From the IMG/VR virus record IMGVR_UViG_3300031687_001264: a DNA stretch of 64,000 nucleotides; one strand, written 5' to 3'. Origin of the DNA: a virus. Taxonomy: Duplodnaviria > Heunggongvirae > Uroviricota > Caudoviricetes. How positions within the stretch are numbered: position 1 is the stretch's first letter; each line of letters opens with the position of its first letter. The position numbers were made by a program, and so were the translations under genes. A model generated the notes under the pieces. The model did not search any database and was not told the origin of the DNA. It worked only from the letters and a program-made list of their open reading frames with translations. This document shows positions 7,958 through 33,072 of the stretch, piece after piece.

Positions 7958-7982
7958 ATCTATATTAAATAAGGAAGTAATT

Positions 7983-8075
7983 ATGTTTTGGTTATTACAC
8001 GCAGCAGCATTAATCGTTATGCCTCTTGCATTATTTGTGACTATACCACTACATCTCATTTCTAATCAACTATAG
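7983..8075 (+). CDS. 30-aa hydrophobic peptide (MFWLLHAAALIVMPLALFVTIPLHLISNQL)
   Basis: RBS taaggaag. Lies between two cell-wall hydrolase genes. Confidence 0.35.
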   Translation: MFWLLHAAALIVMPLALFVTIPLHLISNQL

Positions 8076-8091
8076 TTAAGGAATTAACAAT

Positions 8092-10285: not shown

Positions 10286-10335
10286 GATAAGTGGTCGACG
10301 ATTCACAAAATTCGCAGTTACTAATGGAGATTAAA

Positions 10336-11550
10336 ATGTCGAATCCAACATATATGGATTATTCATCAACGACCCCAGTTGATCCACGGGTCGCCAAAAA
10401 AATGGCAGATTGTTTAACAATGGAAGGCAACTTTGGCAATCCTGCATCACGTTCACATACGTACGGATGGGAAGCAGAAGCAGCCGTTGATAAAGCACGC
10501 AAACAAGTGGCAGATTTGATTGGAGCAGATACACGAGAGATTGTATGGACATCAGGCGCAACTGAATCAAACAATCTAGCACTTAAAGGCATTGCTCAGT
10601 TTTATGCAAAACGTGGTAAGCATATTATTACGTTACGAACAGAACATAAAGCAATACTAGATACTTGTCGTCAACTTGAGCGTGAGGGATTTGAAGTAAC
10701 TTACTTAGACCCAATGCCCAACGGTTTACTAGACATTGAAGTGTTTAAAAATACAATCAGAGAAGACACCATTTTAGCATCATTTATGCATGTTAATAAT
10801 GAGATTGGTGTTATACAAGACTTACACGCCATTGGTGATATCTGTAGAGAACATAAAGTATTCTTCCATGTTGACGCTGCTCAATCAGTAGGCAAAATGC
10901 CAATTGACTTAGCAACGCTCCCAGTAGATTTAATGAGTTTTTCCGCACATAAGATATACGGACCTAAAGGCATGGGTGCATTGTATGTATCACGTAAACC
11001 TAGAGTTCGTCTTGAAGCACAAATGCATGGTGGTGGTCATGAACGCGGTATGCGTTCTGGTACATTAGCAACACATCAAATTGTTGGCATGGGCGAAGCA
11101 TTTGCTATCGCACAAGAAATGATGGCAGAAGAAGAAGTTAGAACACGCGCACTTAGAGATAGGTTATACGCAGGCTTTTCAGATATGGAAGAAGTAGTAG
11201 TTAATGGTGATTTTGAACAGCGTATTGGCAGCAACTTAAATATCAGTTTCAATTACGTAGAGGGTGAATCTCTATTAATGGCAATCTCTAATATTGCAGT
11301 ATCTTCTGGTTCTGCATGTACATCTGCAAGTCTTGAACCATCATACGTTCTTAGAGCGTTAGGACTTAGTGACGAATTAGCACACAGTTCAATTCGATTT
11401 AGTGTTGGTCGTTATACAACAGAAAAAGATGTAGATGATGCAATTATTCTAGTACGACAGAAAGTAGAAAAATTAAGAGACTTATCACCATTATGGGACA
11501 TGTACAAAGATGGTGTTGATTTAAGTACGGTACAATGGGCTGCTCACTAA
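10336..11550 (+). CDS. iscS: cysteine desulfurase IscS/NifS
   Basis: N-terminus [13 protein letters not shown] with the IscS-like PLP fold. 404 aa from the ATG after RBS ggag. Confidence 0.9.
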
Positions 11551-11595: not shown

Positions 11596-11979
11596 ATGAG
11601 TTACAGTAAGGCAGTATTAGATCATTACGAAAACCCACGCAACGTAGGTAAGATGGATGAATCTGATGAAAATGTAGGTACAGGAATGGTAGGTGCACCA
11701 GCATGTGGTGACGTAATGCGTCTACAAATCAAGGTTAGCGATGAAGGCATCATTGAAGATGCTAAGTTCAAAACCTATGGGTGTGGTTCTGCAATTGCAT
11801 CAAGTTCATTGGTGACAGAAATATTAAAAGGTATGGATTTAGACGAAGCAGTTTCTATTTCTAATAGTGAAATTGCACAAGAACTTGCATTACCACCTGT
11901 TAAAATTCACTGTTCTGTATTAGCAGAAGACGCTATCAAAGCAGCAGTCGCAGATTATAAAGAAAAGCACGCCATCTAA
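11596..11979 (+). CDS. iscU: Fe-S cluster scaffold IscU
   Basis: APACGDVMRL, YGCGSAIASSS and HCSVLAE motifs. Confidence 0.9.
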   Translation: MSYSKAVLDHYENPRNVGKMDESDENVGTGMVGAPACGDVMRLQIKVSDEGIIEDAKFKTYGCGSAIASSSLVTEILKGMDLDEAVSISNSEIAQELALPPVKIHCSVLAEDAIKAAVADYKEKHAI

Positions 11980-12275: not shown

Positions 12276-13058
12276 TTGGCAACCACATATGAAACTGTGT
12301 TAGAAGTAATTCATTACACAGACGAATTATTTTATTTCAAAACAACACGTAATCCAGGATTCAGATTTAAAGATGGTGAATTCGTTATGATGGGTTTAGA
12401 TCATTTCTCAGAAAAACTTCAAAAGAATAAACCTATATTGAGAGCATACAGTATTGCTTCTCCATCGTACGCTGAATACTTAGAATTCTATAGTATCAAA
12501 GTACAAGATGGTCCGTTAACAAGTAAATTACAGCATGTTAAAGTAGGTGACAAAATCCTAGTAGGTACTAAACCAACTGGTACATTAGTCCCAGATAATG
12601 TCAAGCCAGGTCGTAATCTATATATGTTAAGTTCGGGCACTGGCGTAGCACCATTTATGGGGTTAGCACGTAGTCTTGATATTTACGACAACTATGATAA
12701 TGTAATATTGGTACACGGTACTAGAAAGATCGAAGATTTAGTTTGGAAAGATATGTGGTTAGGTCTTAACGAACACGAATTGTATGGTGAGTTAGTGCAG
12801 AATAAATTCCATTATTACGCAACGGTTTCTCGTGAAGAATATGAGAATGAAGGCAGAGTAACTACCGCACTATTCGATCATTCGATAGAAGACAAGTTAC
12901 AGTTACCACATCTTGATTCTGAATTCGATAGAGTTATGATTTGCGGGTCTATTCCATTCAATGAGGATTTACAAAATCATCTACTTGAAAAAGGATTCGT
13001 TGAAGGTAACATGAGTGATCCAGGCACATTCGTAGTAGAACGTGCATTCGTAGGATAA
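12276..13058 (+). CDS. fpr: ferredoxin/flavodoxin-NADP+ reductase
   Basis: RAYSIAS FAD motif and SSGTGVAPF NADP motif. TTG start. Confidence 0.75.
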   Translation: MATTYETVLEVIHYTDELFYFKTTRNPGFRFKDGEFVMMGLDHFSEKLQKNKPILRAYSIASPSYAEYLEFYSIKVQDGPLTSKLQHVKVGDKILVGTKPTGTLVPDNVKPGRNLYMLSSGTGVAPFMGLARSLDIYDNYDNVILVHGTRKIEDLVWKDMWLGLNEHELYGELVQNKFHYYATVSREEYENEGRVTTALFDHSIEDKLQLPHLDSEFDRVMICGSIPFNEDLQNHLLEKGFVEGNMSDPGTFVVERAFVG

Positions 13059-13063
13059 CAATA

Positions 13064-13087
13064 GCCCAGTTTAACTGGGCTTTTTTA
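13064..13087. terminator. bidirectional rho-independent terminator
   Basis: gcccag-tttaa-ctgggc followed by T6. Sits between convergent genes. Confidence 0.65.
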
Positions 13088-17186: not shown

Positions 17187-17835
17187 TAACTGGTTTAATA
17201 ACCATATCTCATTAGGTGGCAGTGTTCATATAGTACATGACACTGTTTCACTTATCGGTTCGCCCAAACCATATCTAACTGATATCTATGATAGATTCTC
17301 AAAACTAACATTCGAAGATGTAGAGCATTTCATGGGCTCTCGTATCTTAGACAATTCAATGCCCAATCGTGCATTGATCGAAGATGCAACTAAGTTGTAT
17401 TATCTAGAAGAACAAATCAAACAAGACAAACTAATATTCAAACCGCAACTATTACACGAACCTTGGGCAGATAGATATCGTGTTCATCCTGGTTCGGGTC
17501 GTATCGCAGCAATGTGGAAATGTGATCCCATAAAACCTATAGAAAGCATCTATATTCACTTCAATGAAGACATATTTACTATCCCTCAGAATAGCACCGA
17601 AGTGAGGTCCTCAGAGGCTTTCTTAGACGCAATCACGTATAAGGCGACTAATAGCATAGATTGTACAGTGGAACCAGCGTTAAAACGTACGGAACGAGAC
17701 ACCGAATGGAATCCAACAATAGTAAGTACCGTAAATTGGGAATTCATTCGTTATAGTGAAGGGAAATATTTCTTGGAATATAAGCAAGCATGGCGTGACT
17801 ACGCACTCGACTTATGGTTACTACTTAATCGCTAG
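17152..17835 (+). CDS. hypothetical protein
   Basis: ORF only. Confidence 0.4.
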   Translation: MLSSQNNFSIINNWFNNHISLGGSVHIVHDTVSLIGSPKPYLTDIYDRFSKLTFEDVEHFMGSRILDNSMPNRALIEDATKLYYLEEQIKQDKLIFKPQLLHEPWADRYRVHPGSGRIAAMWKCDPIKPIESIYIHFNEDIFTIPQNSTEVRSSEAFLDAITYKATNSIDCTVEPALKRTERDTEWNPTIVSTVNWEFIRYSEGKYFLEYKQAWRDYALDLWLLLNR

Positions 17836-18525
17836 ATTAGATCTAACCCAGTCATGCATTTCAGGCGTGTTATGCGCATTGATAACTAACCAATAACTAT
17901 CTTTAGTACTTGCATTAAATAATGCATGCTCTAATGTAGTGTTCACTGCATATAGTTGGCCCATTTCAAAATAAAGCGGCTTATCTTCTAACATAAATCT
18001 AAACCACGGATTTGTAGTATTAGATAACGCCATTATTAATCTAAACGTATCCACATTTTCACCACGACTATCTCGATGTGGTGGGAAATAACCGCCTGGC
18101 GATACTCTCAATATATGCGTTCTACCACATAAATGTAATATATCACCAAGTAACTCTTTCATTGAAGTGAGATCATACACAGGGGTAGTTTTATCAAAAT
18201 CTTTTTCACTGTAATCTGTATTATATTTTCTATTCCATTCATACAGACTATTCAATGCGGGACCAGATTGATTTAAACCACTTTCATTTATTACACATAG
18301 ACCGTCTCGCTTAATATGTGGTTTAAATTCATTGTATTGTTCCCATTTATCGTCAAACTGTGATAGTTCTTCCATAAATCTGCTAGTATTAATACTCTTA
18401 TCTAATAAGATTTGATTTCCTAAATTAAAAATTACAGACATATAACTATTCCTTAAAAGATGTATCGCCGGGAAACAATGGTAATTGTGTACCTGGCGCA
18501 CGCTTAGGTATCTTACTATCTGCAC
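17821..18525 (-). CDS. Asp/Asn beta-hydroxylase-family 2OG-Fe(II) oxygenase
   Basis: PGGYFPPHRDSRGE ... TLEHALFN ... LVINAH. An HxD...H facial triad with spacing typical of the AspH/LpxO family. Confidence 0.5.
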   Translation of the reverse strand: MQIVRYLSVRQVHNYHCFPAIHLLRNSYMSVIFNLGNQILLDKSINTSRFMEELSQFDDKWEQYNEFKPHIKRDGLCVINESGLNQSGPALNSLYEWNRKYNTDYSEKDFDKTTPVYDLTSMKELLGDILHLCGRTHILRVSPGGYFPPHRDSRGENVDTFRLIMALSNTTNPWFRFMLEDKPLYFEMGQLYAVNTTLEHALFNASTKDSYWLVINAHNTPEMHDWVRSNLAIK

Positions 18526-19663
18526 TACTCACGCACGCATTAGTCGTACATACTGTGGGTGCATCAAATAACTTGAAACCTGTTTCTATATTTCCTAACG
18601 GCTGATCTACGCAACTATAACTACGCTTCACACTACCATCTGGTTCTCTGATAATAATACTACGATGACCAGATGAACATTCCCAGCCCTTGAATTTATT
18701 AAAACCAAATGCGTTGAATCGTTCAGCCTGATCCATGAACCAATGCTTGTTATCTTTATCCATGAACTCAACTTGAAAATGCTGAGGCACTGTTACATTC
18801 TCTTCCCAATACAACGGATCCCCATCTTTCTTAAATGTAGGTGTCGGGCGTGTAACCAACTGAGTCTTTTTCGCTTTATCTTCTGTATAACCACGCTGTG
18901 GCATACCGTTGTGTAATCGCTCCATCTGCTCTGCGGTGTAACCATCTACTATCTTACTAGCAGTAGGATCAGACATAGGCTTTAATGTACAGTTGATTCC
19001 CTGATTATGAAAGAATAACGCATTATCCCAATCTCGCTCAAACCATTCTGGAACCATCACTTGATTGATAGTTACTTGTACATCATGTTCTTGACAGAAT
19101 ATTAACTTATCAGCAAAGACTTGCATCTTTTCTCTAGTGTCTAAATGCTCTGTGTGCAAACTTGCTGTAATACTTGCTCTATGAAATGGTGCGACATTCT
19201 TAACATAAGTCTCAAACCACTTCATGGGACGTGACATATTAGTTGTCATGTGAACTGATGTGTAATTAGTGTTATCTACATCATCTGCAAGGTGTTTCAT
19301 TATATCCAAATATCCCGGATGGAATGTTGGTTCACCCCCGCTTAAACTAAAGTGAAAACTATTGAAACCATTGTCTCGTGCTTGACGCTTAATCTCGTCA
19401 ACTGTACGTAAACATAACTCAGTAGGTCTAAAGTCTTTCTTATCACTACGAGCGTAAGGCCAGCAGTAACTACAACGATAGTTACAATAGCGTCCCAGTA
19501 ACCAACTAATACTGAATAAATCGCGATGAAGCATTGTGCGTTGCCCTACTCTTACTAAATCATCAAATGGTATTTTAGTAAAATCGTATGTACTGTATTT
19601 TAAATCTTCGCTCATTTTAGATGCACCATGAAATCTTTTTATCGCCATAATATTCTCTAGCAA
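18446..19663 (-). CDS. radical SAM enzyme with C-terminal SPASM/twitch domain (canonical order)
   Basis: CNYRCSYC, SGGEP and C-terminal C...DGSV...C..PLGNI...C..C. Confidence 0.75.
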   Translation of the reverse strand: MLENIMAIKRFHGASKMSEDLKYSTYDFTKIPFDDLVRVGQRTMLHRDLFSISWLLGRYCNYRCSYCWPYARSDKKDFRPTELCLRTVDEIKRQARDNGFNSFHFSLSGGEPTFHPGYLDIMKHLADDVDNTNYTSVHMTTNMSRPMKWFETYVKNVAPFHRASITASLHTEHLDTREKMQVFADKLIFCQEHDVQVTINQVMVPEWFERDWDNALFFHNQGINCTLKPMSDPTASKIVDGYTAEQMERLHNGMPQRGYTEDKAKKTQLVTRPTPTFKKDGDPLYWEENVTVPQHFQVEFMDKDNKHWFMDQAERFNAFGFNKFKGWECSSGHRSIIIREPDGSVKRSYSCVDQPLGNIETGFKLFDAPTVCTTNACVSSADSKIPKRAPGTQLPLFPGDTSFKE

Positions 19664-21111: not shown

Positions 21112-21762
21112 TTAATTTTTTGAACGGTTAATCCATTCTTCATCTGTCACTTGTATAGGATCAATACTTAATTCATTCAATGACAGATGTTCAGGCAATA
21201 TCATCGCATATTCAATACAATCTACCGCTTCTTCAAATGTCATCAACTTGCGTCCTGGATGCTTGTCTGCGTTATTCGGCAATGTACCAAACGTAACATA
21301 ACTCACCTTTGGGCCACCTTGCCAGATACTTTTCAATCCCATAGCGTTACTCGCACTACGTAATGCTTTCTTCTCTTGTTGATATGTCCAATCCGACCCT
21401 TTTGTAGCCCTGTCCGTGGTGGACCCGACAGACACTATATGTAGGGATTTCCGGGCACTCTGTGCGGTTTTATATACTACATCTAGTAGCAGTGCCTGAT
21501 GGTACTGCCATAGTGCACTACAGTTAATAAAAATGTCGTATTCTAGTGCTTTATTTGCAACAGTTTTTTTCACATGATTCAATGTTAGATCATGGTCACT
21601 GATGCTTTGACTAATAAAATCTGTCTGTGGATATCGTTTTAATATCTCACTCGCTAGACCAATCTCTGGATTACCTGTACATAATATTTTCTTATTAGTT
21701 AAATCAATCACTTTACTTTCCTTTTTACTACTGGACGCAACGTCCATATTTCTTTTGTACAT
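21112..21762 (-). CDS. short-chain dehydrogenase/reductase-like
   Basis: Rossmann motif CTGNPEIGLA and YQQEK (YxxxK). Confidence 0.45.
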   Translation of the reverse strand: MYKRNMDVASSSKKESKVIDLTNKKILCTGNPEIGLASEILKRYPQTDFISQSISDHDLTLNHVKKTVANKALEYDIFINCSALWQYHQALLLDVVYKTAQSARKSLHIVSVGSTTDRATKGSDWTYQQEKKALRSASNAMGLKSIWQGGPKVSYVTFGTLPNNADKHPGRKLMTFEEAVDCIEYAMILPEHLSLNELSIDPIQVTDEEWINRSKN

Positions 21763-21813: not shown

Positions 21814-23076
21814 TTAGTTATTGTCATTGATTTGTCCTTTAAATTCTGGACATGATTCTACTAACGTACCACGTTGCAATTCATCCATCTTCAAATTATA
21901 ATCAATAAATTCTTGCCAGTGTTCAGCATGTGTATTCCCAGCATTTAAATACTTAATCACATCGTCTACCTTAGGCCATGCTTTATGACTTTTTAAATTA
22001 TACAATGCCAACGTCTTTAAATGATGTGGCAATACTTGTATATTCATACTACGCGGATGGTTTAATATATTGAAATATAACTGATCATGTTCTAATCCAC
22101 GTGATTCCGCAAACTCGATAACCTCGTGTAGTGCACATACATTCAATGCTTGTACCGTACAATGAATCTGAATATATACATTATCCAATTTAGATAATTC
22201 ATCAAAATTCTTTTCTACTATATGCCAATGACTAGGGTAACGAATATATCTGTCACGCGCACCAATTGCATCAATTGAGCAATTTAATTGTACACGCTTG
22301 AAATGTGACCAATATTCGATCATCTTCGGTGGCACATTAGTTAGGTTGGTGTTGTACTTTAAACGAATGCCCGATGCAAGATCATTTTCAATACAATAGT
22401 CTAACAACTTATATTGACTAACTGCCAATGTAGGCTCACCACCAGTTAAATAAATTTCTTCAACCGTATGAGCAATTTCAGTGAATGTAATACCTGTCTT
22501 TTCCCAATCTGGCCATTCAGTCATGGTATTCATGAATTCTAATGTGTCTTCATCCAATTTCTTTGGTGGATCTAAATATGCTGCATCAACTACTTTATTC
22601 CAATCTTTAACCCACATGCTACTTGCCCACGGATTACACATGCGACATTTTAGGTTACATAAGTTACCCAAGCGTAAGTCAACATATTTCACATCAACTG
22701 GAATTTCAACATCTATCTTCACATCTTCTTTCAGCCACTTTTCATTAAATCCTGCTCGCGCACTACGAATGCCAGCATCTTCTTCTCTGAAACAACGCGC
22801 ACACATATCTGGTCGCTCACCATCGATGAACTGTTTTCTGATAGTTGTATAGGTTGGGCTATTCCATACTTCATCTAAATCATGCTTGTAGATTTTATAT
22901 GGCTTGCCATTCTCTTGTAATATTGTGTTCTCACCGGGCGTGCTATTACAGCATACTCGATAAGATCCCGCAGCATTAGTTGCTACGTGCATAAAGGGTA
23001 AAACACAGAACGTGTCACTTACTTTTTTTGTCATTGGTTTAAATCCATTTTGTATAATCTTTGCCATCACTATCAT
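21814..23076 (-). CDS. radical SAM enzyme with N-terminal SPASM-like Cys domain (paralog 1)
   Basis: FCVLPFMH...RVCC...CARC, then CNLKCRMC and LTGGEP. Confidence 0.7.
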   Translation of the reverse strand: MIVMAKIIQNGFKPMTKKVSDTFCVLPFMHVATNAAGSYRVCCNSTPGENTILQENGKPYKIYKHDLDEVWNSPTYTTIRKQFIDGERPDMCARCFREEDAGIRSARAGFNEKWLKEDVKIDVEIPVDVKYVDLRLGNLCNLKCRMCNPWASSMWVKDWNKVVDAAYLDPPKKLDEDTLEFMNTMTEWPDWEKTGITFTEIAHTVEEIYLTGGEPTLAVSQYKLLDYCIENDLASGIRLKYNTNLTNVPPKMIEYWSHFKRVQLNCSIDAIGARDRYIRYPSHWHIVEKNFDELSKLDNVYIQIHCTVQALNVCALHEVIEFAESRGLEHDQLYFNILNHPRSMNIQVLPHHLKTLALYNLKSHKAWPKVDDVIKYLNAGNTHAEHWQEFIDYNLKMDELQRGTLVESCPEFKGQINDNN

Positions 23077-23971
23077 CTAGTATCATTACATGATCAATCA
23101 ATTGTTGTTTATTATCTTGATCATCCAATGCACCCGGAGCCATGTATGCGGGACTAATCAAATCACTCGCTCTATTGAAGTGAATATCGTGACTTGTCGC
23201 CCAATCATTCACTTCGTGAATGTTATTAATATTTAGTACACTTGGTAAACACGTAATACATATACTCGTATTATCAGGTGAACTCTTGTGTATGTCAATG
23301 ATATTATTACTTACTTGTTCCCAGTTTGCTCCTCGTCTAAGGTATTCAAAACGCTCACCTATGGCATCTACACTTGCAACTATTATAACACGTTTAAACG
23401 ATTCGAACAAGGGATAATATGCATTAATATCTATTGTTCCATTAGTAATGAATTGTAATTCAATCGTAGATGAAACGTCTGCATCGATCAGATATTTAAT
23501 TATCTTCTTTACTTGTGGTATCATGAATGGTTCACCACCTGTAAATTTAAGAATCTTTGCAAAATGCAATTGTGGGTATATCTGCTCAATATCTTTGTGC
23601 CAACCTGTATTTGCTTTGCGCTTACCAGTTTTTACTGCCCACGAACTTGAACTATAACTATCACATGAGACGCACGTGAGATTACACGTGTTGTTAATCT
23701 TTAAGTCCCATTGCTCTGTGCCAATGCTATCTGCTAGTACATCATTCATATACATTCGATAACTCTTACCATTTGATTCTTCATCTTGTTGGCACTCTAT
23801 GCATTCAGGCAACCAACCTCGCAATGACTCAACATAGTATTTGTTGTGCAACGATTCCCAATCATCGGTAATTGCAACACCAGATGATGCCGCATTCCAA
23901 GCACAGCATGGTCTAACTTCGCCTGTTACGCCTATCGTTACTGCATGTTTAAACGCCAAGCATTTTGGCAT
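23039..23971 (-). CDS. radical SAM enzyme with N-terminal SPASM-like Cys domain (paralog 2)
   Basis: CLAFKH...RPCC...PECIEC, then CNLTCVSC and FTGGEP. Confidence 0.7.
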   Translation of the reverse strand: MPKCLAFKHAVTIGVTGEVRPCCAWNAASSGVAITDDWESLHNKYYVESLRGWLPECIECQQDEESNGKSYRMYMNDVLADSIGTEQWDLKINNTCNLTCVSCDSYSSSSWAVKTGKRKANTGWHKDIEQIYPQLHFAKILKFTGGEPFMIPQVKKIIKYLIDADVSSTIELQFITNGTIDINAYYPLFESFKRVIIVASVDAIGERFEYLRRGANWEQVSNNIIDIHKSSPDNTSICITCLPSVLNINNIHEVNDWATSHDIHFNRASDLISPAYMAPGALDDQDNKQQLIDHVMILDDSDGKDYTKWI

Positions 23972-24704
23972 AGCCGCGATTCACCTGTTGTTTAAATTCA
24001 TCACTAGGACCACCATCAAAGATCATATGTATCCTTGGTTCTTCACTTTTATTCCATACAGAATGCTTATATCCTGTATTCAATTTCATCACTGAACCTG
24101 CTTCAAATGGAACAATACCCATACCTTCAAATACGAATTCGCATCCATCTGGATTGTTTAATGCTACATTAGTTGCACCTACTCCAACTGGATTAGGTCT
24201 ATCGTTGTGAATGCCCAACCAACCATCTGGTAACAGTGCCATGAACCTTACACGAGCAAACTGGTTGTACAACATTTCATCTTGCATCCATTGTACTGTT
24301 TTAGGGCAAAATTTAGCAATATCAGTCCAGTCACTATGGGTTTCTTCATAATCATCTGGTAAGTTATAATCTTCTGCACAATTAGTATGTACACTGCTTA
24401 TTCCATGAATCGACAAACTCAACCACCCCGAACTACAAGGACGGTGTGCAGTAAAGCATGACGTATATAACAAATTATTTGCTTCTTCAAACAAATCCTT
24501 GTGTGGTACATTAATTTCTGGTATCGATATATATGGAAAACGGGTATTGTCCATGATGTAATCAACATCGTGCTCACTTTCTTCTAAAAAATTCCCTGCA
24601 TCTAATATTTTAAAATCAGGTTTAATAATTCTATTTTCTTCATGCCATATAATTGATTCATCATCAATTTCTTCCCTATCTAAAGGTGATCCTTCAAACC
24701 ACAT
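23949..24704 (-). CDS. Asp/Asn beta-hydroxylase-family 2OG-Fe(II) oxygenase
   Basis: GIHNDRPNP ... YKHSVWN ... RIHMIFD. Paralogous to 17821..18525. Confidence 0.5.
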   Translation of the reverse strand: MWFEGSPLDREEIDDESIIWHEENRIIKPDFKILDAGNFLEESEHDVDYIMDNTRFPYISIPEINVPHKDLFEEANNLLYTSCFTAHRPCSSGWLSLSIHGISSVHTNCAEDYNLPDDYEETHSDWTDIAKFCPKTVQWMQDEMLYNQFARVRFMALLPDGWLGIHNDRPNPVGVGATNVALNNPDGCEFVFEGMGIVPFEAGSVMKLNTGYKHSVWNKSEEPRIHMIFDGGPSDEFKQQVNRGYAKMLGV

Positions 24705-24714
24705 AATTTATCTC

Positions 24715-26274
24715 CTATTGTTCAAATGTTAATGTTTCATTATTGGTTGTACTTATAATAGCCCTTGATGGACATGTTAAGTCGTTATCGTTTATATCAG
24801 TGCCCGAAAACCAACAATCATCATGCAATTCATTTAATTTAGTTATTAAACTAATGAAACTCAATTCCATTGCAAACGGTTTACTAAGCATCTTTGGCAC
24901 AATATAACTATAGATATTAGATGTCCACATCAATGTTCTTTTATTTTCTACTGCTTCAAATAATTTATCATGTCCATATATTAAATCACATTCAATTACT
25001 TCCCAGTTGCTCTGTCTGATTCTATCCCATACTGATAACCAATTAGTATCTCCATCAAATTGCTGTATTACGTTTGGCCATCTCTCAAAAGTCAAATCTC
25101 TTAAATTTCCATTTGCATCTGGATGCTGTTCAATCCATGCATCGACAAACTCAGGATAGTTTATACCATCCCATTGTTCTAACATATCTCGTTTGAATTT
25201 ACAACTCAATGGATCAAAATCATATAACACAAATTTCGTGTCTTTTGTAAAACCATACTTGTATGCATAGTAGAATAATTTAAAGCCCGCAGTTGCACCA
25301 ACATATTGATCAAATACCGTTCCTTCAATTTGTTCTGCAATACCAGGCTGACTAGATTCTGTATTTACAAAATATATAGGACTATCTGGTGCGAACATCT
25401 CTCTTATCATTCGATTTGCTTGAAATGTTAGTTTATCACTGTCAAACGGTAAACCTTGTATAGCCTTCTCAAATTCAATTGAACCAACATGCGGCTTCAT
25501 CGTGGCTAAACAATTCATAAAATCTGCACTCAATCCTGGGACAATTAGTTCTTGTCGCAATGACCATGTCAATAACGGATTGCACAATTTATGATGGTAT
25601 TGTTCATTAAATTCTTCGTGTGTTATCCACGTATTCCATGTAGCATGTTTGATATTTAATCGTGCACCACCAAGTTTTACAATACCAAATAAACTATCCT
25701 CAAAATCTTCAACTATTCCTTGTTTTCTAGTAACCCAATTGTCACTTGGCTTTTCATGTCGTGTACCTTGACGAGAATACCGATCTGCGGGATCTTGATT
25801 GTATAATACATCAGCGGGATCTTGTGCACCTTGCTCATACCACGTATCTAAATTAATCAGTATGATGTTTCTTTCAAAATGAGAATATCTTTCATCATCG
25901 GTTTGTAATATATTTCCTGCAACTATCCATTTAGTGATATCAAATTCTTCATTAATACGATTTATTTCATCAAGTAATTTTAAGTTAACATCATCAGATG
26001 CTGACCAAGTGCCGTCAAACCACATACATGCATAACGATATCCTAATTTGCGCATAGCGATCATCCAACTAATTTCGGATTGTCCTACAATGTTAACTAT
26101 GCCTCCCCGAAGATGATTATTATGTTCTACCTCTGCTATTTCACGTAACTTTTGCTTTAATATAGGTGTGTCACTTAATTCAATACTATCAGTGTTATTT
26201 GAATTGAATGCGTGAACTATTGGCCATGAATTTTCTCCATGATAATAATTCCACAGACTCTGTCCTTTCTTCAT
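24715..26274 (-). CDS. hypothetical 519-aa protein
   Basis: Largest island protein with no recognisable motif. RBS aaggacg. Confidence 0.5.
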   Translation of the reverse strand: MKKGQSLWNYYHGENSWPIVHAFNSNNTDSIELSDTPILKQKLREIAEVEHNNHLRGGIVNIVGQSEISWMIAMRKLGYRYACMWFDGTWSASDDVNLKLLDEINRINEEFDITKWIVAGNILQTDDERYSHFERNIILINLDTWYEQGAQDPADVLYNQDPADRYSRQGTRHEKPSDNWVTRKQGIVEDFEDSLFGIVKLGGARLNIKHATWNTWITHEEFNEQYHHKLCNPLLTWSLRQELIVPGLSADFMNCLATMKPHVGSIEFEKAIQGLPFDSDKLTFQANRMIREMFAPDSPIYFVNTESSQPGIAEQIEGTVFDQYVGATAGFKLFYYAYKYGFTKDTKFVLYDFDPLSCKFKRDMLEQWDGINYPEFVDAWIEQHPDANGNLRDLTFERWPNVIQQFDGDTNWLSVWDRIRQSNWEVIECDLIYGHDKLFEAVENKRTLMWTSNIYSYIVPKMLSKPFAMELSFISLITKLNELHDDCWFSGTDINDNDLTCPSRAIISTTNNETLTFEQ

Positions 26275-26304
26275 TTTTCGTCCTTATCGTCTGATTTCAT
26301 ATGT

Positions 26305-26640
26305 TCATTTATTCCCACAAAAATAGGAACAAACTGTTGGTGGATTATCACTATCAAATCCTTCATCCCATAGATATGTCCAAAATAAATTATGCTTCGT
26401 TACATTTTCGACTCCATGTACTACAGCATTATTCCAATCAGGATCTTCTTCATTAAGTTTATCCAATACGGTATCAGTAAGATCAACATGACTATTGGAA
26501 GACTTTTTTAGTTCAGTAGCATAATAACAACATGGCCAGACCCTGCCCGCTACAGTTATCTCAAATTGGCGCTTCACTTTATCGTCTTTTGTCTCACATG
26601 CGACTATACACTCAATGTTATTTTTATTAGATTCCTTCAT
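26305..26640 (-). CDS. stand-alone SPASM/twitch-like Cys-rich protein
   Basis: CIVAC...GRVWPCC...VCSYFC. Same pattern as the N-terminal domains of the paralogs. Confidence 0.5.
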   Translation of the reverse strand: MKESNKNNIECIVACETKDDKVKRQFEITVAGRVWPCCYYATELKKSSNSHVDLTDTVLDKLNEEDPDWNNAVVHGVENVTKHNLFWTYLWDEGFDSDNPPTVCSYFCGNK

Positions 26641-27325
26641 ACCGTACTCCTAGATTTTGAAATCGCTGCTTTAATTCTTCTATTACGTGATGCTCGTCGC
26701 GTTCACGCAAACGCATTGCATATTCAAGATCTACTATAAAATTCATCTCGATATCAAGTTCACCTGCGTGTAAATATGCTTCTTCTATTTGATGTATATT
26801 CCATTCAAATAATATAAACTGCCATCGCGTCTCACCATCATTATCATTAAACGCTCGCATATTGGCATATGCCTTATCAAATACTACACCCTCTCTATAT
26901 TTCCAATTAGTATCATGATCTAATCCATCAATACCAAATATAATACTCAGTCTTCCAGAATATTTTTTAGCAATTGTTGCATACCAATTAGCATTTCTAA
27001 GACCTCCATTGGTACTTATAATCATAGATACATCTTTATCTTCATCTGCTAACACATATTCCATCATTTCATTAATATGCGGATTCATCATGGGATCACC
27101 ATATTGTCCACATAACTTAACATATCGTACTTTATTAGATACATTATATTCGCTGGAAAAAATCATTTTAAATGTTTCAAGCGACATATGCTCTTGTACT
27201 AACCAATCAACAGGTTCACCAGTATCAGGATTAGTACGTGGACACCGTCTACATCTTGCATTGCAATATGTAGTTATTTCCATTTCCACTTTATGAGCGT
27301 CTACATCGTCGTACTTATATATCAT
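26627..27325 (-). CDS. short radical SAM enzyme (core only)
   Basis: CNARCRRC at residues 20-27. 232 aa with no auxiliary Cys domain. Confidence 0.65.
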   Translation of the reverse strand: MIYKYDDVDAHKVEMEITTYCNARCRRCPRTNPDTGEPVDWLVQEHMSLETFKMIFSSEYNVSNKVRYVKLCGQYGDPMMNPHINEMMEYVLADEDKDVSMIISTNGGLRNANWYATIAKKYSGRLSIIFGIDGLDHDTNWKYREGVVFDKAYANMRAFNDNDGETRWQFILFEWNIHQIEEAYLHAGELDIEMNFIVDLEYAMRLRERDEHHVIEELKQRFQNLGVRYEGI

Positions 27326-28541
27326 TATTGATGTCTATTAAAAAATCAGTAAGTGGCATATCAAGATATTGTTCTATCATCTCACTTAATTTAATCTTAG
27401 GATTGTATCTATTTTCTAAATCACGTGTGTACTTACGCATCTTAGTATATTGTATATAATCTCGTTGATTATTTTCCATATAAGTAGCAAATGTATCCAT
27501 CTCTGGATGTTCTTTTTCATGCTTTCGTAATTTATTAATAATAGCCGATCTATAAGGCTCAGGCCATATCGCTGGGCTTAGTATCTTTGGTGTATGTAAT
27601 ATGTTAGCAGTAATGAATGTCAATTCAATGTCACTCTGCTTCCAGTATTCATAAAATTCTGGCATCTGAAATATATTATGTGCTTGTATAGTAATACCCA
27701 ATGCTAAGTCTATATGCTCTATGTCATTCAATACACTCAGATTAGATTCTACTGTACTCCAATCACCACCTTCACGAATGTAATCATAAACATCATTGAC
27801 ACCATCAAGTGATACTTTGATATTAACATGCTTGAATTGACTCCAAATTTCTAGCAAATTATATTTTTTAAATGTTAGATGACTCAGATTAGTAGCATAT
27901 CGCAATTTGATCGTAGATCGTAGATGCTCTGGTATCGATTCAAGTAAGTCGTAATGCTCTTGATTAATGATAGGTTCGCCACCAGTGAATTGTAATACTT
28001 TAACTGTATCCCAGAACCCATCCCATTTGCCTATGCTATCAAACAACGTAGTTGGTCGTAGGAGACGTGTTTCGTGATGCTCTGTACCCATATACTTCTC
28101 AATGATGTCTAAGTCCTGTACGCGCTTGTACGAACTATGTGTACTACACATAATACATTTCAAATTACAGAAGTTAGAAACCTTCAACTCTATCCACAAT
28201 GGTGGATTATCTACAGAGTAATCATCATTGAGTTTGATCAAGTCTTTATAATTATCCCAATCATCGTCAAACCATTGCTGTCTATTTGATACAACACCAC
28301 TTGCTTCATTATGCCAACATACATCACACTCTGATGGTATCTCATTGCTAGTGAGTGCCCTACGAAGTTCTTTGTAGTTGTCATTATTCCATGTGTCTTC
28401 AATAGCAGCACCCGGCTCATTGAAAATCTTAGTTTGTGCTTCACAGCAAGGTACTATATCGCCGCCCGCTGATCCGTAAGTATGCATGAATGGTATCATA
28501 CAAAATGATGTTGTTTTTGCTAGTTCATTAATATCTTTCAT
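27315..28541 (-). CDS. radical SAM enzyme with N-terminal SPASM-like Cys domain (paralog 3)
   Basis: FCMIPFMH...IVPCC...SECDVC, then CNLKCIMC and FTGGEP. Confidence 0.7.
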   Translation of the reverse strand: MKDINELAKTTSFCMIPFMHTYGSAGGDIVPCCEAQTKIFNEPGAAIEDTWNNDNYKELRRALTSNEIPSECDVCWHNEASGVVSNRQQWFDDDWDNYKDLIKLNDDYSVDNPPLWIELKVSNFCNLKCIMCSTHSSYKRVQDLDIIEKYMGTEHHETRLLRPTTLFDSIGKWDGFWDTVKVLQFTGGEPIINQEHYDLLESIPEHLRSTIKLRYATNLSHLTFKKYNLLEIWSQFKHVNIKVSLDGVNDVYDYIREGGDWSTVESNLSVLNDIEHIDLALGITIQAHNIFQMPEFYEYWKQSDIELTFITANILHTPKILSPAIWPEPYRSAIINKLRKHEKEHPEMDTFATYMENNQRDYIQYTKMRKYTRDLENRYNPKIKLSEMIEQYLDMPLTDFLIDINNDI

Positions 28542-29661
28542 TTAATAATTTCTTATATCCTTGTATATATTCTTCTGCATCATTATTACGTAAATCAAAC
28601 AATTCGTGCATTTGATCTAAATAAATTTCACTATTATCTGGTGCGTTATTTGTTTTACATAATGAAATTAATAATGTATATGCTTTCTTTAATTTCCAGT
28701 GACAGTCTTTGTATTGCTCTTCTACTATCGCTCTCAAATTATTCTTATATGTATCTGTCTGATGCGCAATACTCAACCAATCAGGCTCATGTATAGTCTG
28801 TAACATTACTGGTACACCTATCTCAAATCTTGCCCATCTCATTAGATCTATTAACACTGGTGCATTTAATACACCAACTGTGCAAGCGACAAATACTTCT
28901 ACCTTGTCGTATTTAGTTCCCAATTCTGTCCATTGCTTCAGTACAGATTCAATAGCAGGGAATTTGGATGGGTGACGTAATATATCGTTTAATTCGCCAA
29001 CTGCATCTATACTATTCGTAATTCGCAAGTTATTGAATTCTAATAGATAATCTAAGTTCATCTTCGCTGGCCAGTATGTGCAATTCGTAAATATCTCAAT
29101 ATCGATCTGAGGTGCAATACCACTATCTACCAATCGTTTAATGAATCGTAAAAACTGCTTATGCATGAACGGCTCACCACCTGTCACTTTCATATATTTC
29201 AAATGAGATAGTTGATCCATGGATAGTGCATCTAAATCATATTCTCTATTCTTTGCAAAATGTTCTAATACTTCAACCATCACTAAATCAATCGCTAGTG
29301 CGTCTTTATCCCATGTATGACTATACTCAGGTCCGCAACCAACACATGCAAGATTACATAGATTGCCCACTGTAATCTCTAGATATTCTAATTGGATTGA
29401 ATCTGTGAAATCATCAAAGAATTCGTCTGCTTCTGTTCGCATACTAGTAAGACCAGTATCTTCATCGGCTTTGCATTTCCAGCAACCCTCATGCCATTCG
29501 TTCCTTAACATCGTCTCGCGAATATCTTTAAACACATACTTGTTATCATCATCAGATAAGTAACGATCATGAAATTTACAACATGGTGTAGCGGGAGTAC
29601 CGTTTGCAAGCATTGCTGCTTTGAACGGATATGCACAAGCGTTACTCGGCAAATTTGCCAT
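28528..29661 (-). CDS. radical SAM enzyme with N-terminal SPASM-like Cys domain (paralog 4)
   Basis: CAYPF...TPCC...EGCWKC, then CNLACVGC and VTGGEP. Confidence 0.7.
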   Translation of the reverse strand: MANLPSNACAYPFKAAMLANGTPATPCCKFHDRYLSDDDNKYVFKDIRETMLRNEWHEGCWKCKADEDTGLTSMRTEADEFFDDFTDSIQLEYLEITVGNLCNLACVGCGPEYSHTWDKDALAIDLVMVEVLEHFAKNREYDLDALSMDQLSHLKYMKVTGGEPFMHKQFLRFIKRLVDSGIAPQIDIEIFTNCTYWPAKMNLDYLLEFNNLRITNSIDAVGELNDILRHPSKFPAIESVLKQWTELGTKYDKVEVFVACTVGVLNAPVLIDLMRWARFEIGVPVMLQTIHEPDWLSIAHQTDTYKNNLRAIVEEQYKDCHWKLKKAYTLLISLCKTNNAPDNSEIYLDQMHELFDLRNNDAEEYIQGYKKLLNERY

Positions 29662-30559
29662 TATTTTTATACCTCTTTAGTGCTTTCGCTAAGTTGATGC
29701 GATTGTATGCGCGATCACGATGGAACATATCCCATTCTGGTGTATCAGGTGCTTGGGCAATATGTATCGTATTAGTCTCTTGCAATCCATAATGTTCACA
29801 TACAATTTTATGTGCTTCTCTATATTTGTTAGGCATAGTATCTGGGCTGAACTTTTTCATTAACGCATTAGACAATGCTACATTCAAATGAATACCGTGA
29901 TTCCATTCTGTCTGCACTCGCATACCACAACGCTCTTCATCTAAACGACTGAACACAATACCAGCACGCCAGTTACCACCACTTAATCCTTTACCAGTGC
30001 TGAATGCAACCATCTTAATACAATCATGTGACAAATCAACATCAATATCAAAACAAGTTCCAAACCATGCACAATCTACCAGAATAGGAATATTCTTTGC
30101 TGTACACTCTTCAATCAACCAATCCCATCGCTCGTGCTTGCGTCCGTTACCACTGAATGGAATACTAACGATAACCGCATCACCTACGGATAACCCAGTA
30201 TCGTCAATGCTATCTGACCAATTCATTTCTGGTCCCAACCATACATCACGGTTATACGGATATTCACCACGGAACACCTTTAAGTTCTGTCCAGTAGCGA
30301 TGCACCAATACTGCCACCATTCTAATGCTTGTGTAGTACCTAAACTAACATAACGATCAGGATATGTATCTAACCCAGTAAAGTTATTTAATTTGCTGCT
30401 TTGTATCCATTTGGGATATAATTCTAAGAATTCTGCTGGTGCTGTACCCACTTCTGCCAAATTCATATTTGGCAATACTTCATCTTGTATATAGTCAATA
30501 AATGGTTGATTCCAAATACTGTTGCCTGTCTTACCGAAATCTGGGTTGTTACTCATCAT
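29642..30559 (-). CDS. PLP-dependent aminotransferase-like (DegT/ArnB-like fold)
   Basis: ILVDCAWFG ... AFSTGKGLSGGNWRAGIV resembles the DegT active-site lysine region. Confidence 0.4.
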   Translation of the reverse strand: MMSNNPDFGKTGNSIWNQPFIDYIQDEVLPNMNLAEVGTAPAEFLELYPKWIQSSKLNNFTGLDTYPDRYVSLGTTQALEWWQYWCIATGQNLKVFRGEYPYNRDVWLGPEMNWSDSIDDTGLSVGDAVIVSIPFSGNGRKHERWDWLIEECTAKNIPILVDCAWFGTCFDIDVDLSHDCIKMVAFSTGKGLSGGNWRAGIVFSRLDEERCGMRVQTEWNHGIHLNVALSNALMKKFSPDTMPNKYREAHKIVCEHYGLQETNTIHIAQAPDTPEWDMFHRDRAYNRINLAKALKRYKNNGKFAE

Positions 30560-30819
30560 GTATTCCTTGTTAGTCCTAGTGCTATTGCATTATCAAATGT
30601 AATAGGATGTGCGCTTACAACGAGCATAAAGAAATCTCTCGCTTCATCGTAATCATTAAATATAGATTCAAATACTATTTCACTTGTTGTACCACTAAGT
30701 GTAACACTATATTTGTCTGTAATTGTTTCATCCGAATATGTGAGTATAACTAAATCGTTATTAGCACCCATATTGTCTTTGAAGTCTTCTGTCGTTTTTA
30801 TATATTGTCGTTTTATCAT
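30556..30819 (-). CDS. hypothetical small protein
   Basis: ORF coupled to neighbours. Confidence 0.4.
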   Translation of the reverse strand: MIKRQYIKTTEDFKDNMGANNDLVILTYSDETITDKYSVTLSGTTSEIVFESIFNDYDEARDFFMLVVSAHPITFDNAIALGLTRNT

Positions 30820-31070
30820 TATAAATATGCCATCTTTAATAAAAATATTTCTTCATCTGGTAGGTCAACTAGAGTAACCCATTCATTGAATGTATAATTA
30901 ATTCCATCAATCCACCATGCAGCGTGACCATCAGGCCATATAACCGCAGGTCCAATCTCATTATGCCATATACACTCATCGTCGTATATGTAGCCGCAAT
31001 ATTCTCTATGATGTACGATCACGATACCATCGTTTGTTACTACAAATGTGCAAGTTGCACTATCTGACAT
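30819..31070 (-). CDS. MORN-like small protein with C-terminal DEEIFLLKMAYL tail
   Basis: Paralogous to 1786..2178. Confidence 0.45.
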   Translation of the reverse strand: MSDSATCTFVVTNDGIVIVHHREYCGYIYDDECIWHNEIGPAVIWPDGHAAWWIDGINYTFNEWVTLVDLPDEEIFLLKMAYL

Positions 31071-32310
31071 AACTCTCGATTTCTGGTATATACTGCAATG
31101 TTTCTGTTTTTCGTAATCTATCTAAATCGTCAGTGTACCTTAGAAACCAATTCCATTGCTTATCAGATTCTTGATCATCTTCGTTTGATAACATTAACCC
31201 ATTACGAATGGATTCAATACCTGTCTGATATCCACCTTCATCTGAGTTTGCACTAGTAAGTGGCCACATTTCTAAATTAGGGATATGCTTTATTTTATCA
31301 TACGCCAATGCTTTCAACTCTTCTGGCATATTTCCTATATTCAAATAGCCAGGATGAACTACCACGTTACTCATCGAAATACTTGCACGATGCGCATGAT
31401 GGGTAGCAAACCATTCCCAGACTTTATCTAAATTAAATATATTGGTAATCATTACCGTAACAGCAAACACTACCTCTACATTTGGGATATCGTAGAATTT
31501 TTCTATGTTCTCGTTCAATTGATCCCATGTGTAACTAGGACCGCCACGAATAATACTATATAATTCATCAGTTGCTTCTACACTAATTAATAATTCTACA
31601 TGCTTAAAGTGACTGAATAATTCTCTAAATTCTTCTTTGAATACGGTTGCATTTGTACTGATGTCTAATGATACGCTACTTGCAATACCATTGTCTACAA
31701 ACCATTGCAATACTGATAAACAGATTTCATCATACAACGGCTCACCACCACGCAGTGCCACCCATTGCAGATTGCGAAAATACTCTGGATTCTTAAATAG
31801 ATTATCCATGAAGTCTATACTTGCACCATGATAACCTATTGGCTGTTTACTCCAATATTCTGGCTTTTCTCTATTAAGAGATTTACCATCTTTAGTCCAG
31901 CCTGTACTTACGAACGGATCACAATGAATACATGCTAGATTACATTTATTACTAAGAGTAAAATCAAGATACCTAATATCAGGAACAGAATCTACTGTAA
32001 GATCTTTACTCGCAACCTTTGTTTCATGATCAATTCTATCCCAGAAATATAAACGACGACTGCGCCCAACTTTCTCTTTCTTCACGCAACCCTGACATGA
32101 TTCTGGAATCTCACGCTTACGATGTGATTCTCTCAATTCAGTGTATGCATCTCCCTCTAGTATTTCACGCAATGATTGCTTACCAATATTACCTAATTTA
32201 CCTTTATAGATAATGTCTGGGATGACGTTACCACCCCATTTAACAGTTAATGCGTGCCAAGGTGCTAAACAGGTAGGTAGATCTTTTCTATTTACGAATG
32301 TGTTTTTCAT
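31060..32310 (-). CDS. radical SAM enzyme with N-terminal SPASM-like Cys domain (paralog 5, divergent)
   Basis: CLAPWH...ESCQGC, then CNLACIHC and LRGGEP. The CC pair is absent. Confidence 0.65.
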   Translation of the reverse strand: MKNTFVNRKDLPTCLAPWHALTVKWGGNVIPDIIYKGKLGNIGKQSLREILEGDAYTELRESHRKREIPESCQGCVKKEKVGRSRRLYFWDRIDHETKVASKDLTVDSVPDIRYLDFTLSNKCNLACIHCDPFVSTGWTKDGKSLNREKPEYWSKQPIGYHGASIDFMDNLFKNPEYFRNLQWVALRGGEPLYDEICLSVLQWFVDNGIASSVSLDISTNATVFKEEFRELFSHFKHVELLISVEATDELYSIIRGGPSYTWDQLNENIEKFYDIPNVEVVFAVTVMITNIFNLDKVWEWFATHHAHRASISMSNVVVHPGYLNIGNMPEELKALAYDKIKHIPNLEMWPLTSANSDEGGYQTGIESIRNGLMLSNEDDQESDKQWNWFLRYTDDLDRLRKTETLQYIPEIESYVR

Positions 32311-33072
32311 TTAATTTATAGAACCTATGTTACGCCTGTTTATTTCCTTTAATTTTTCATAAGATATACGTGCTGCTGTTTCTATGTTAATCTCACAATC
32401 ATCTAATACAGTATTATACGTTAATTTTTTATAAACGTCATATGTACTATTATAATACTCAAACAGCAAATTATAGTCAGCGCCAATCTTTGCGGCTTCA
32501 TACAAAGTTTCTACAGCATCTATTACTAGGCATTCACCTATGTATTGTGAATCGTGAATTTGACCAAGAATGCAATCATCCCAATCAATAATAATCCAAT
32601 CACCAATATCAAACTGCAATATATTACTACGTCCGCCGTCAACATTACAATAAGGAAATATCTTCAGATTTGTTTCTATATATTTTGGAAATACGTGTTT
32701 ATTATACATATCCATATCGTTGTATATTGAGGATAATGGGTTAGAGTCATTCTCCAACCAAGATAAATTTTTGTCTAATTCAAACCCGTAAGGAACTCTT
32801 GTCATTTTATACTTAATAAAAGAATTTGAGTTTGACTCATTACCATTCCAAGAATAATCTAGTCTTTCAATAATTTCCCAATCATCATGTATTAGTTTTT
32901 TAGGGTGTAATGAATTTATTAGATCAATTTGTCCTTGAATACATTCTTCATCAATAGCTGGTATTATTTTTACAATAAAATTACCATCGTCATATGCCCA
33001 CCTTGGCATATGACATGATCTCTCATTAGGATCACCGGGTTCGAACTTATCTGGCATTAATTTCTTATACAT
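32311..33072 (-). CDS. hypothetical protein
   Basis: ORF only. Confidence 0.45.
   Translation of the reverse strand: MYKKLMPDKFEPGDPNERSCHMPRWAYDDGNFIVKIIPAIDEECIQGQIDLINSLHPKKLIHDDWEIIERLDYSWNGNESNSNSFIKYKMTRVPYGFELDKNLSWLENDSNPLSSIYNDMDMYNKHVFPKYIETNLKIFPYCNVDGGRSNILQFDIGDWIIIDWDDCILGQIHDSQYIGECLVIDAVETLYEAAKIGADYNLLFEYYNSTYDVYKKLTYNTVLDDCEINIETAARISYEKLKEINRRNIGSIN

Follow-up and report, generated by a model that had tools for sequence, protein, structure and literature searches.

A phage gene cassette with five radical SAM proteins of a curated N-terminal-twitch family

Radical SAM enzymes bind a [4Fe-4S] cluster in a CX3CX2C loop, and this cluster cleaves S-adenosylmethionine (SAM) to a 5′-deoxyadenosyl radical. 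In reviews, the auxiliary modules of the SPASM and twitch types are described as C-terminal extensions of these enzymes (PMC9012708). The published SPASM motif contains seven Cys residues, in the form CX9-15GX4C-gap-CX2CX5CX3C-gap-C (PMC6231123). BtrN, the butirosin 2-deoxy-scyllo-inosamine dehydrogenase, has one auxiliary cluster with four Cys ligands in a hairpin-plus-helix module (PMC9012708, PMC6231123), and a layout of hairpin, helix and two Cys residues has been described for both BtrN and SkfB (PMC6231123). MoaA, the GTP 3′,8-cyclase, has a three-Cys twitch and binds its substrate at the free iron (PMC9012708). Some members of the SPASM/twitch megacluster have additional Cys residues that are conserved and lie N-terminal to the barrel, for which no structures exist (PMC9477430, the RadicalSAM.org paper). 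Here, we describe five open reading frames (ORFs) located between positions 21,814 and 32,310 of a 64,000-nucleotide stretch of DNA from a virus of the Caudoviricetes (IMG/VR record IMGVR_UViG_3300031687_001264), in which a Cys-containing module lies in front of the radical SAM core. This whole stretch is referred to below as the window.

The best explanation of the locus as a whole, which we consider quite probable, is that the five ORFs encode members of the NCBIfam family NF033640 with an N-terminal, one-cluster twitch, and that they represent five old subfamilies kept in a shared cassette. All five proteins passed the 170-bit cutoff of NF033640 (N_Twi_rSAM, “twitch domain-containing radical SAM protein”), with scores of 375.2 bits (o21814), 186.1 bits (o23039), 313.1 bits (o27315), 226.0 bits (o28528) and 252.8 bits (o31060). 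In four ORFs, the alignment covered almost all of the 398 profile positions (1–395, 2–387, 3–396 and 4–397), whereas o23039 covered only positions 5–332 of 398 and is without the C-terminal ≈65 positions, which correspond to a helical tail. The alignment spanned the radical SAM core in every case. These profile matches place the five ORFs within NF033640 as true members: they have the same N-terminal twitch followed by a radical SAM core, align over nearly the full length and show no family-level difference from it, apart from an Asp in place of the second Cys in the o31060 subfamily and the missing helical tail in o23039. The permuted architecture was thus already curated and is not revealed by this window, contrary to the novelty implied in the initial annotation of the sequence; N-terminal Cys residues had also been noted before (PMC9477430). 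What the window contains are members that belong to five distinct subfamilies and are carried by a phage.

The family is a very large, uncharacterized branch of radical SAM proteins with an N-terminal module, of which no solved or assayed member was found. A profile built from the five paralogs retrieved 6,889 cluster representatives (at 50% identity) at E ≤ 1e-30, and relatives are encoded on at least 562 IMG/VR contigs. About 20 UniProt proteins labelled “uncultured Caudovirales phage” matched the full-length fold with template modelling (TM) scores of 0.65–0.77. Literature searches for N-terminal SPASM/twitch, NF033640 or N_Twi_rSAM, and for the family in jumbo phages and Bdellovibrio, turned up no paper devoted to it. 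Proteins of ≈800 residues with two matched stretches are frequent among the top family matches; they are apparently tandem N-twitch radical SAM fusions, or else read-through gene calls.

The five ORFs are single, uninterrupted reading frames on the minus strand. The 420-residue o21814 (21814..23076) has Cys residues at C24, C42/43, C92 and C95, followed by C140-x3-C-x2-C147 and a GGEP motif at residue 212. Its twitch segment, C24-x12-G-x4-C42(C43)...C92-x2-C95, is encoded at 22792..23007 (translation checked), and its radical SAM cluster motif, CNLKCRMC, at 22636..22659. The shortest of the five, o23039 (23039..23971, 310 residues), has C4, C22/23, C57, C60, C96..C103 and GGEP at 145; here, the twitch (C4..C60) is found at 23792–23962 and the cluster motif CNLTCVSC at 23663–23686. 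The corresponding residues in o27315 (27315..28541, 408 residues) are C14, C32/33, C72, C75, C125..C132 and GGEP at 187, with the twitch at 28317–28502 and CNLKCIMC at 28146–28169. In o28528 (28528..29661, 377 residues), a variant with G-x5-C, they are C9, C27/28, C60, C63, C102..C109 and GGEP at 161, with the twitch at 29473–29637 and CNLACVGC at 29335–29358. Finally, o31060 (31060..32310, 416 residues), which has an Asp for the second cluster Cys, contains C14, C72 and C75, followed by C123..C130 and GGEP at 188, with the twitch at 32086–32271 and CNLACIHC at 31921–31944.

The first Cys is followed by 17 residues, including a Gly, and then by a Cys-Cys pair in four of the five ORFs; o31060 has Pro-Asp at this point. 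The ligands in BtrN are spaced C-x17-C...C-x2-C, so that the C-x17-C found here would be the same. The C-x2-C pair lies 33–48 residues after the post-hairpin position, CX3CX2C another 36–48 residues beyond C-x2-C, and GGEP later still. CX3CX2C and GGEP, which define the radical SAM superfamily, were present in all five. The module thus occupies residues ≈4–95 and the radical SAM core starts at ≈96–140, in place of the C-terminal position that is usual for a twitch. The expression C.{9,15}G.{4,5}[CD]...C..C...C...C..C matched exactly these five ORFs among 561 six-frame ORFs and gave no match in 200 residue shuffles. Three of the ORFs (o21814, o23039 and o27315) have the strict CX9-15GX4C form, while o28528 is GX5C and o31060 is GX4D.

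The Cys maps and the expression match bear out the order proposed in the initial annotation, in which CX3CX2C and GGEP follow the Cys module. The single N-terminal pattern that it gave for all five ORFs (C-x2-P(F/W)-x8-12-G-x3-4-P-C-C, a conserved Trp and then C-x2-C) was over-specified. The first Cys and the C-x2-C pair do occur in all five, and these are the only invariant N-terminal positions. Elsewhere, o31060 reads “PDIIY” without the Cys pair, o23039 lacks P(F/W), o21814 has “RVCC” without the Pro and o28528 has G-x5-C; the Trp is present in only three of the five. The Asp of o31060 (D32) is kept in phage and Bdellovibrionota orthologues as “PD”, “AD” or “SD”, which points to ligation by the Asp or to an iron site left open.

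Profile searches identified the N-terminal region itself. Pfam SPASM (PF13186, gathering score 21.5) matched the N-termini of o21814 (27.0 bits, residues 24–95), o27315 (22.6 bits, 14–76) and o31060 (41.6 bits, 14–75). The match to Pfam Radical_SAM (PF04055, gathering score 29.5 bits) lies after the SPASM match, with 36.3, 42.3, 41.1 and 29.5 bits (the last exactly at the cutoff) in the other ORFs and 26.4 bits, below the cutoff, in o31060. The partial (β/α)6 barrel fold was found for the radical SAM core. Among NCBIfam profiles, positions 205–269 of 293 in GeoRSP_SPASM, which make up its C-terminal SPASM part, aligned with the N-terminus of o31060 (E = 2e-7), as did positions 235–310 of 326 in NirJ2.

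The arrangement C-x12-G-x4-C...C-x2-C corresponds to the first four Cys residues of the seven-Cys SPASM motif. The second half of that motif (CX2CX5CX3C...C) is absent, and there are no further Cys residues between C-x2-C and CX3CX2C. The module is therefore best described as a one-cluster twitch, or half-SPASM, rather than a full SPASM domain. An AlphaFold2 model of o21814, made from 31 sequences, had a mean predicted local distance difference test (pLDDT) value of 81.3 and a predicted TM score of 0.80. According to DSSP, the predicted chain runs from C24 through a hairpin (E30–33/E38–40) to C42/43, then through a helix (H74–84) to C92 and C95, with regional pLDDT values of 74–94, and this predicted topology agrees with the published twitch layout. 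The profile matches and the model support the assignment of the N-terminal ≈100 residues as a SPASM/twitch-type auxiliary Fe-S domain ahead of the radical SAM core, which upholds what had been proposed from the sequence alone: PF13186 was found in three of the five, NF033640 in all five, and the hairpin-helix topology was predicted. We consider the domain assignment correct and infer, by analogy, that the module binds a [4Fe-4S] cluster next to the active site and has a redox or substrate-binding role.

Compared to the described enzymes, the five proteins resemble BtrN in the makeup of the module; the twitch of BtrN is C-terminal, however, and sequence similarity to it was not detectable beyond the superfamily level. 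BtrN has an aminotransferase as its partner in acting on a carbocyclic sugar; an aminotransferase-like gene is present in this cassette as well. The twitch of MoaA is likewise C-terminal, and all five proteins score far below the MoaA cutoff; o31060 keeps an Asp at the position of the missing ligand. The best scores for MoaA, anSME, mycofactocin and other named equivalogs were only 20–47 bits, compared to cutoffs of 180–650. With the full SPASM enzymes anSME, PqqE, SuiB and CteB, the five proteins share the Pfam SPASM match and the first four of the seven Cys residues, whereas the half that holds the second cluster is absent, the domain is N-terminal and no peptide-recognition domain was found. 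The resemblance to BlsE and AprD4, which act on sugar nucleosides and aminoglycosides, is at the fold level only (≈200 residues aligned, 6–16% identity).

The five paralogs are only 23–28% identical to each other. In the marine contigs L002 and L006, o21814, o23039, o27315 and o28528 have positional orthologues that are 41–65% identical, with the gene order kept, while o31060 has a positional orthologue (65%) in L006 only, of these two contigs. The much lower identity among the paralogs than to their positional orthologues elsewhere argues against a recent local duplication. By sequence comparison, the five are old, distinct subfamilies that travel together, and not, as first thought, a permuted domain order that was amplified as a paralog family.

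Related loci were collected with an alignment of o21814 orthologues, and the genome scan, seeded with only the peptides GNLCNLKC and LKYNTNLT, is biased towards these peptides and the o21814 subfamily. In 167 such loci, the twitch preceded CX3CX2C in 536 of 541 twitch-bearing ORFs. One 280-residue ORF in L097 (2534–3373, plus strand; SPASM E = 4.6e-15) was the only one of the 541 with a twitch C-terminal to CX3CX2C. Viral and cellular loci alike typically have 1–8 paralogs per ≈20 kb. About 70 of the best 80 cellular loci (L008–L087) were from metagenome-assembled genomes of Bdellovibrionota, including contigs of 2.5–3 Mb, an enrichment that may reflect the two-peptide seeding. Several paralog clusters per genome are frequent in this group; a 3.0-Mb contig and a 2.5-Mb chromosome, for example, have three loci each. 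Both the subfamilies and the accessory genes of the phage cassette recur on chromosomal contigs of Bdellovibrionota. Judged by this gene content, the cassette is common to a marine jumbo phage clade and the Bdellovibrionota. Among cultured phages, the 255-kb Vibrio phage K566 (L168, OZ196521.1 161548–168284) has four clustered N-twitch radical SAM paralogs, annotated merely as “radical SAM domain-containing” or “hypothetical”, and Vibrio phage K567 is a second cultured carrier, likewise with four clustered paralogs. The existence of these cultured carriers makes the pathway and the role of a putative N-terminal auxiliary cluster experimentally reachable.

In the direction of transcription (minus strand), the cassette starts with o31060 and continues with two small ORFs (30556–31070; 87 and 83 residues), a 305-residue pyridoxal 5′-phosphate (PLP)-dependent-type protein (29642..30559), o28528, o27315, a radical SAM gene consisting of a core only (26627..27325), a 111-residue ORF (26305..26640), a 519-residue protein (24715..26274), a cupin (23949..24704), o23039, o21814 and a possible Rossmann protein (21112..21762). 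These are followed by an unannotated 312-residue ORF (20051–20989), a staphylococcal nuclease (SNase)-like gene, another radical SAM gene (18446..19663) and a second cupin-like gene (17821..18525). Most of the junctions overlap by 1–38 nucleotides, which makes co-transcription of the genes probable. Most of the accessory ORFs had no significant match in PHROGs, Pfam or NCBIfam. ORF 32311–33072 was considered as a kinase-like protein from a motif seen by eye only; it had no support from hidden Markov models (HMMs) and was dropped.

The 305-residue protein is a short, divergent member of the fold-type-I aminotransferase-like PLP proteins. PF00155 (Aminotran_1_2) matched 6 of 18 members of its family, with a best E-value of 9e-6, and K190, in “FST.KGL”, is invariant. 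It co-occurs with N-twitch radical SAM proteins in 19 viral and 15 cellular loci. For the 519-residue protein, which had no match in Pfam, PHROG or NCBIfam, an AlphaFold2 model (pLDDT 82) resembled GT-A glycosyltransferases, including enzymes of giant viruses and chloroviruses, and, more weakly, class-I methyltransferases; we describe it by these predicted folds as GT-A-like and methyltransferase-like. Single-sequence and profile searches of the PDB found no solved relative of either the PLP-like or the 519-residue protein. In related loci, two paralogs of the 519-residue protein were seen side by side. The cupin matched PF05118 (Asp_Arg_Hydrox, E = 2.4e-11) and resembles Asp/Asn β-hydroxylases of the Fe/2-oxoglutarate oxygenase family; it co-occurs in 29 viral and 8 genome loci. 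The second cupin-like protein had a PF05118 match (E = 8.7e-4) under the gathering score. The 216-residue protein at 21112..21762 is possibly Rossmann-like or related to short-chain dehydrogenases/reductases (SDRs): the SDR match was non-significant (E = 0.022), the Rossmann-type “CTGNPEIGLA” was recognized by eye only, and there was no Pfam or PHROG match. It co-occurs in 22 viral loci. The two small ORFs are poorly kept, with 0–1 matches in related loci, and are unlikely to be conserved precursor peptides, since they are not conserved there.

The island contains seven radical SAM genes. The gene at 18446..19663 (405 residues; Pfam Radical_SAM 50 bits) is more strongly conserved than any other gene of the cassette and has orthologues of 65–78% identity in ≈40 viral loci. 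Its C-terminal region has four Cys residues (C329, C351, C372 and C377) that are invariant in the orthologues and form a twitch-like C-x13-G-x7-C...C-x4-C with “PLGNI”. This gene had been taken as the example of canonical domain order in the island, an interpretation that found no backing in the profile searches: Pfam SPASM did not match even at E ≤ 10, and no SPASM or twitch HMM detected the C-terminus. From the Cys pattern, a putative auxiliary-cluster domain at this C-terminus is plausible. On sequence grounds, the clearer instance of canonical order in the window is a split pair. Its first half is the 232-residue core-only gene at 26627..27325 (minus strand; Pfam Radical_SAM 31 bits), which has orthologues in L006; the second is the 111-residue ORF at 26305..26640 (minus strand), a stand-alone twitch-like Cys protein with “VWPCCYY...CSYFC”, and the two genes overlap by 14 nucleotides. 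The 111-residue protein had sub-threshold matches to SPASM (E = 0.0096) and to an HMM of the five-paralog twitch (E = 0.0077), and its 137-residue orthologue in L006 matched SPASM with 24 bits, above the gathering score. The pair is kept in L006 (14223–15928) in the order core, 137-residue twitch, core. Another locus, L116, has a stand-alone twitch copy of 101 residues (SPASM E = 7e-9). The core with its stand-alone twitch is possibly the unfused state of the twitch-core architecture. The stand-alone copies in the window, L006 and L116, and the single C-terminal copy in L097, indicate that the twitch module is mobile.

Three genes that could supply Fe-S clusters and electrons lie on the strand opposite to the island, ≈6–10 kb upstream of it. 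These encode an IscS-like cysteine desulfurase (10291..11550, plus strand; PF00266, Aminotran_5, E = 4.8e-84), an IscU Fe-S scaffold (11596..11979, plus strand; PF01592, NifU_N, E = 4.7e-53) and an FNR-like NAD(P)-binding oxidoreductase (12276..13058, plus strand; PF00175, NAD_binding_1, E = 1.4e-10), which is a possible electron donor. The phage IscS, IscU and FNR-like reductase probably support the cassette. The window yielded no homologue of SufE. In the related contig L002, a SufE gene is located beside the cassette. The passages on radical SAM and SPASM in Nishimura et al. 2017 describe T4-like marine viral genomes that pair Fe-S assembly genes with up to 12 radical SAM genes, and a 183-kb genome with 12 radical SAM genes and an A-type carrier gene (PMC5332604). 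The window likewise combines Fe-S genes (IscS and IscU) with seven radical SAM genes; those passages contain neither the N-terminal twitch architecture nor the cassette, and in contrast to the T4-like genomes, the polymerase encoded in the window is closest to those of the phages Phosso, Atu_ph07 and Vibrio 2.275.O.

In the mechanism that we propose, the N-terminal module would bind one auxiliary [4Fe-4S] cluster, with ligands provided by the Cys before the β-hairpin, the Cys after it and the C-x2-C pair past the following helix. By analogy with BtrN, anSME and SuiB, an electron would pass from the substrate radical to this cluster. In the o31060 subfamily, the Asp may serve as a ligand, or an open iron site may bind the substrate as in MoaA. 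As to the function of the cassette, we tentatively put forward, as the leading candidate although short of an even chance, that a sugar, or a molecule derived from one, is tailored stepwise by radical chemistry and then transferred by the GT-A-like protein. The tailoring steps could include oxidation followed by transamination, in the manner of BtrN, as well as epimerization or dehydration. This idea is based on the aminotransferase-like and GT-A-like partners, on the glycosyltransferase and methyltransferase that adjoin three paralogs in L009, a 3-Mb Bdellovibrionales contig, and on the presence of the sugar-acting BlsE and AprD4 among the nearest solved cores.

Some observations weigh against this account of the locus. 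Pfam SPASM was sub-threshold in o23039 (15.5 bits, E = 0.021) and did not match o28528. No solved relative of the radical SAM proteins was found in the PDB by single-sequence and profile searches, and no biochemical study of the family was found in the literature, so that we infer both cluster binding and chemistry. An HtrA-like protease is encoded in the related locus L006, which would suit protein or peptide substrates, and the family to which the cupins belong is known chiefly for hydroxylating proteins or lipids. The two sub-threshold N-termini, and the fact that two Cys pairs could in principle bind zinc, would fit a zinc ribbon or another non-Fe-S domain unrelated to SPASM/twitch. We regard this as very improbable: no zinc-ribbon family in Pfam matched the full-length proteins at E ≤ 0.1 or the N-terminal fragments of o23039 and o28528 at E ≤ 10, nor did the N-terminal region match any other domain family, three N-termini are above the SPASM threshold, the spacing fits CX9-15GX4C...CX2C, the curated family is named for its twitch and the predicted topology is that of a hairpin and helix. 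The comparison with SPASM and twitch HMMs that had been suggested as a check thus found similarity, and no zinc ribbon. An artefact of reading frame or assembly, or a recent local amplification in this phage, has the clustering of the paralogs in its favor and nothing else, and its probability is negligible. The ORFs are single and intact, and the index of the metagenome collection lists the exact o21814 protein in 43 blocks, with identical neighbors in the 23 contigs carrying it that were read. One of these, an independent 115-kb assembly (ENA contig), gave identical gene calls and the same neighbors, and the domain order recurs across the related loci. Amplification is contradicted by the low identity among the paralogs relative to that with their positional orthologues. 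The reading-frame artefact that had been raised as a possible cause of the domain order is thereby excluded.

Other functions for the cassette were also considered. The enzymes could be maturases of peptides or proteins, either of peptides made by the ribosome and modified after translation (RiPPs) or acting on virion or host proteins, with the cupin hydroxylating Asp or Asn. The cores are weakly similar to many RiPP maturases in NCBIfam, and SkfB, CteB, SuiB and EpeE are among the structural neighbors; the HtrA-like protease in L006, the protein hydroxylation for which Asp_Arg_Hydrox is best known and the two small ORFs of 83 and 87 residues within the cassette would also fit. However, neither a RiPP recognition element (RRE) or PqqD-type domain nor any other peptide-recognition domain was found in Pfam or NCBIfam searches, the small ORFs have almost no counterparts in related loci, and the partners that do recur resemble aminotransferases and GT-A proteins, with a glycosyltransferase and a methyltransferase beside the L009 paralogs. 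On balance, we consider maturases unlikely, although they come next after the tailoring of a sugar. Phage DNA glycosylation is an established theme, and the GT-A-like protein, together with the SNase-like nuclease, DNA ligase, DNA polymerase and phosphoribosyl pyrophosphate (PRPP) synthetase in the neighborhood, could point to hypermodification of phage DNA or nucleotides. This is improbable, since Bdellovibrionota chromosomes hold the same cassette without phage DNA-replication genes, and base-modification families such as QueE were unmatched beyond the generic similarity of the core.

Beyond the tailoring of a sugar as such, the cassette might constitute an undescribed multi-step radical pathway of jumbo phages and predatory Bdellovibrionota that makes or tailors an unusual sugar, glycan or other decoration, an idea that we regard as doubtful. 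Such a pathway would comprise the five N-twitch subfamilies, the radical SAM enzyme with the C-terminal 4-Cys region, the split pair, the PLP-like, GT-A-like and cupin partners, and IscS and IscU. The o31060 subfamily would contribute an Asp-ligated or open-site auxiliary cluster, and the genes with a stand-alone twitch would record stages in the fusion of the module to the N-terminus. The cassette would have been exchanged between phages and Bdellovibrionota, and its product might decorate a surface or the virion during infection or predation. The window gives this branch of radical SAM proteins a biological setting, namely a conserved cassette of five to nine paralogs with aminotransferase-like, GT-A-like and oxygenase partners and its own Fe-S genes, carried by marine jumbo phages, which are abundant, and by Bdellovibrionota. 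Its chief interest lies in this conserved, Fe-S-self-sufficient cassette that both have in common.

We read the source of the window as an uncultured, widespread marine jumbo-type phage. The GC content is ≈36%, and no tRNAs were found in the window. Among 50,697 phage records, megablast found no relatives of the 20-kb island at the DNA level, and tblastn with o21814 matched only five cultured or deposited phage records. Among the phage-type genes in the window are those for a family-B DNA polymerase (phrog_262, E = 1.6e-201), an ATP-dependent DNA ligase and an ATP-dependent protease. The polymerase is 44–49% identical to those of Sinorhizobium phage Phosso, Agrobacterium phage Atu_ph07 and Vibrio phage 2.275.O, which are jumbo phages of 340–490 kb. 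Other cargo genes, in order along the window, encode the PRPP synthetase (2441–3412), an SPFH/Band-7 protein (5161–6072), a Peptidase_M15 and cell-wall hydrolase (7223–8745), a class-3 lipase (13085–13891), an HD_4 protein of the RelA/SpoT-type HD group (14556–15104) and the 758-residue ATP-dependent protease (phrog_4871; 56644–58920).

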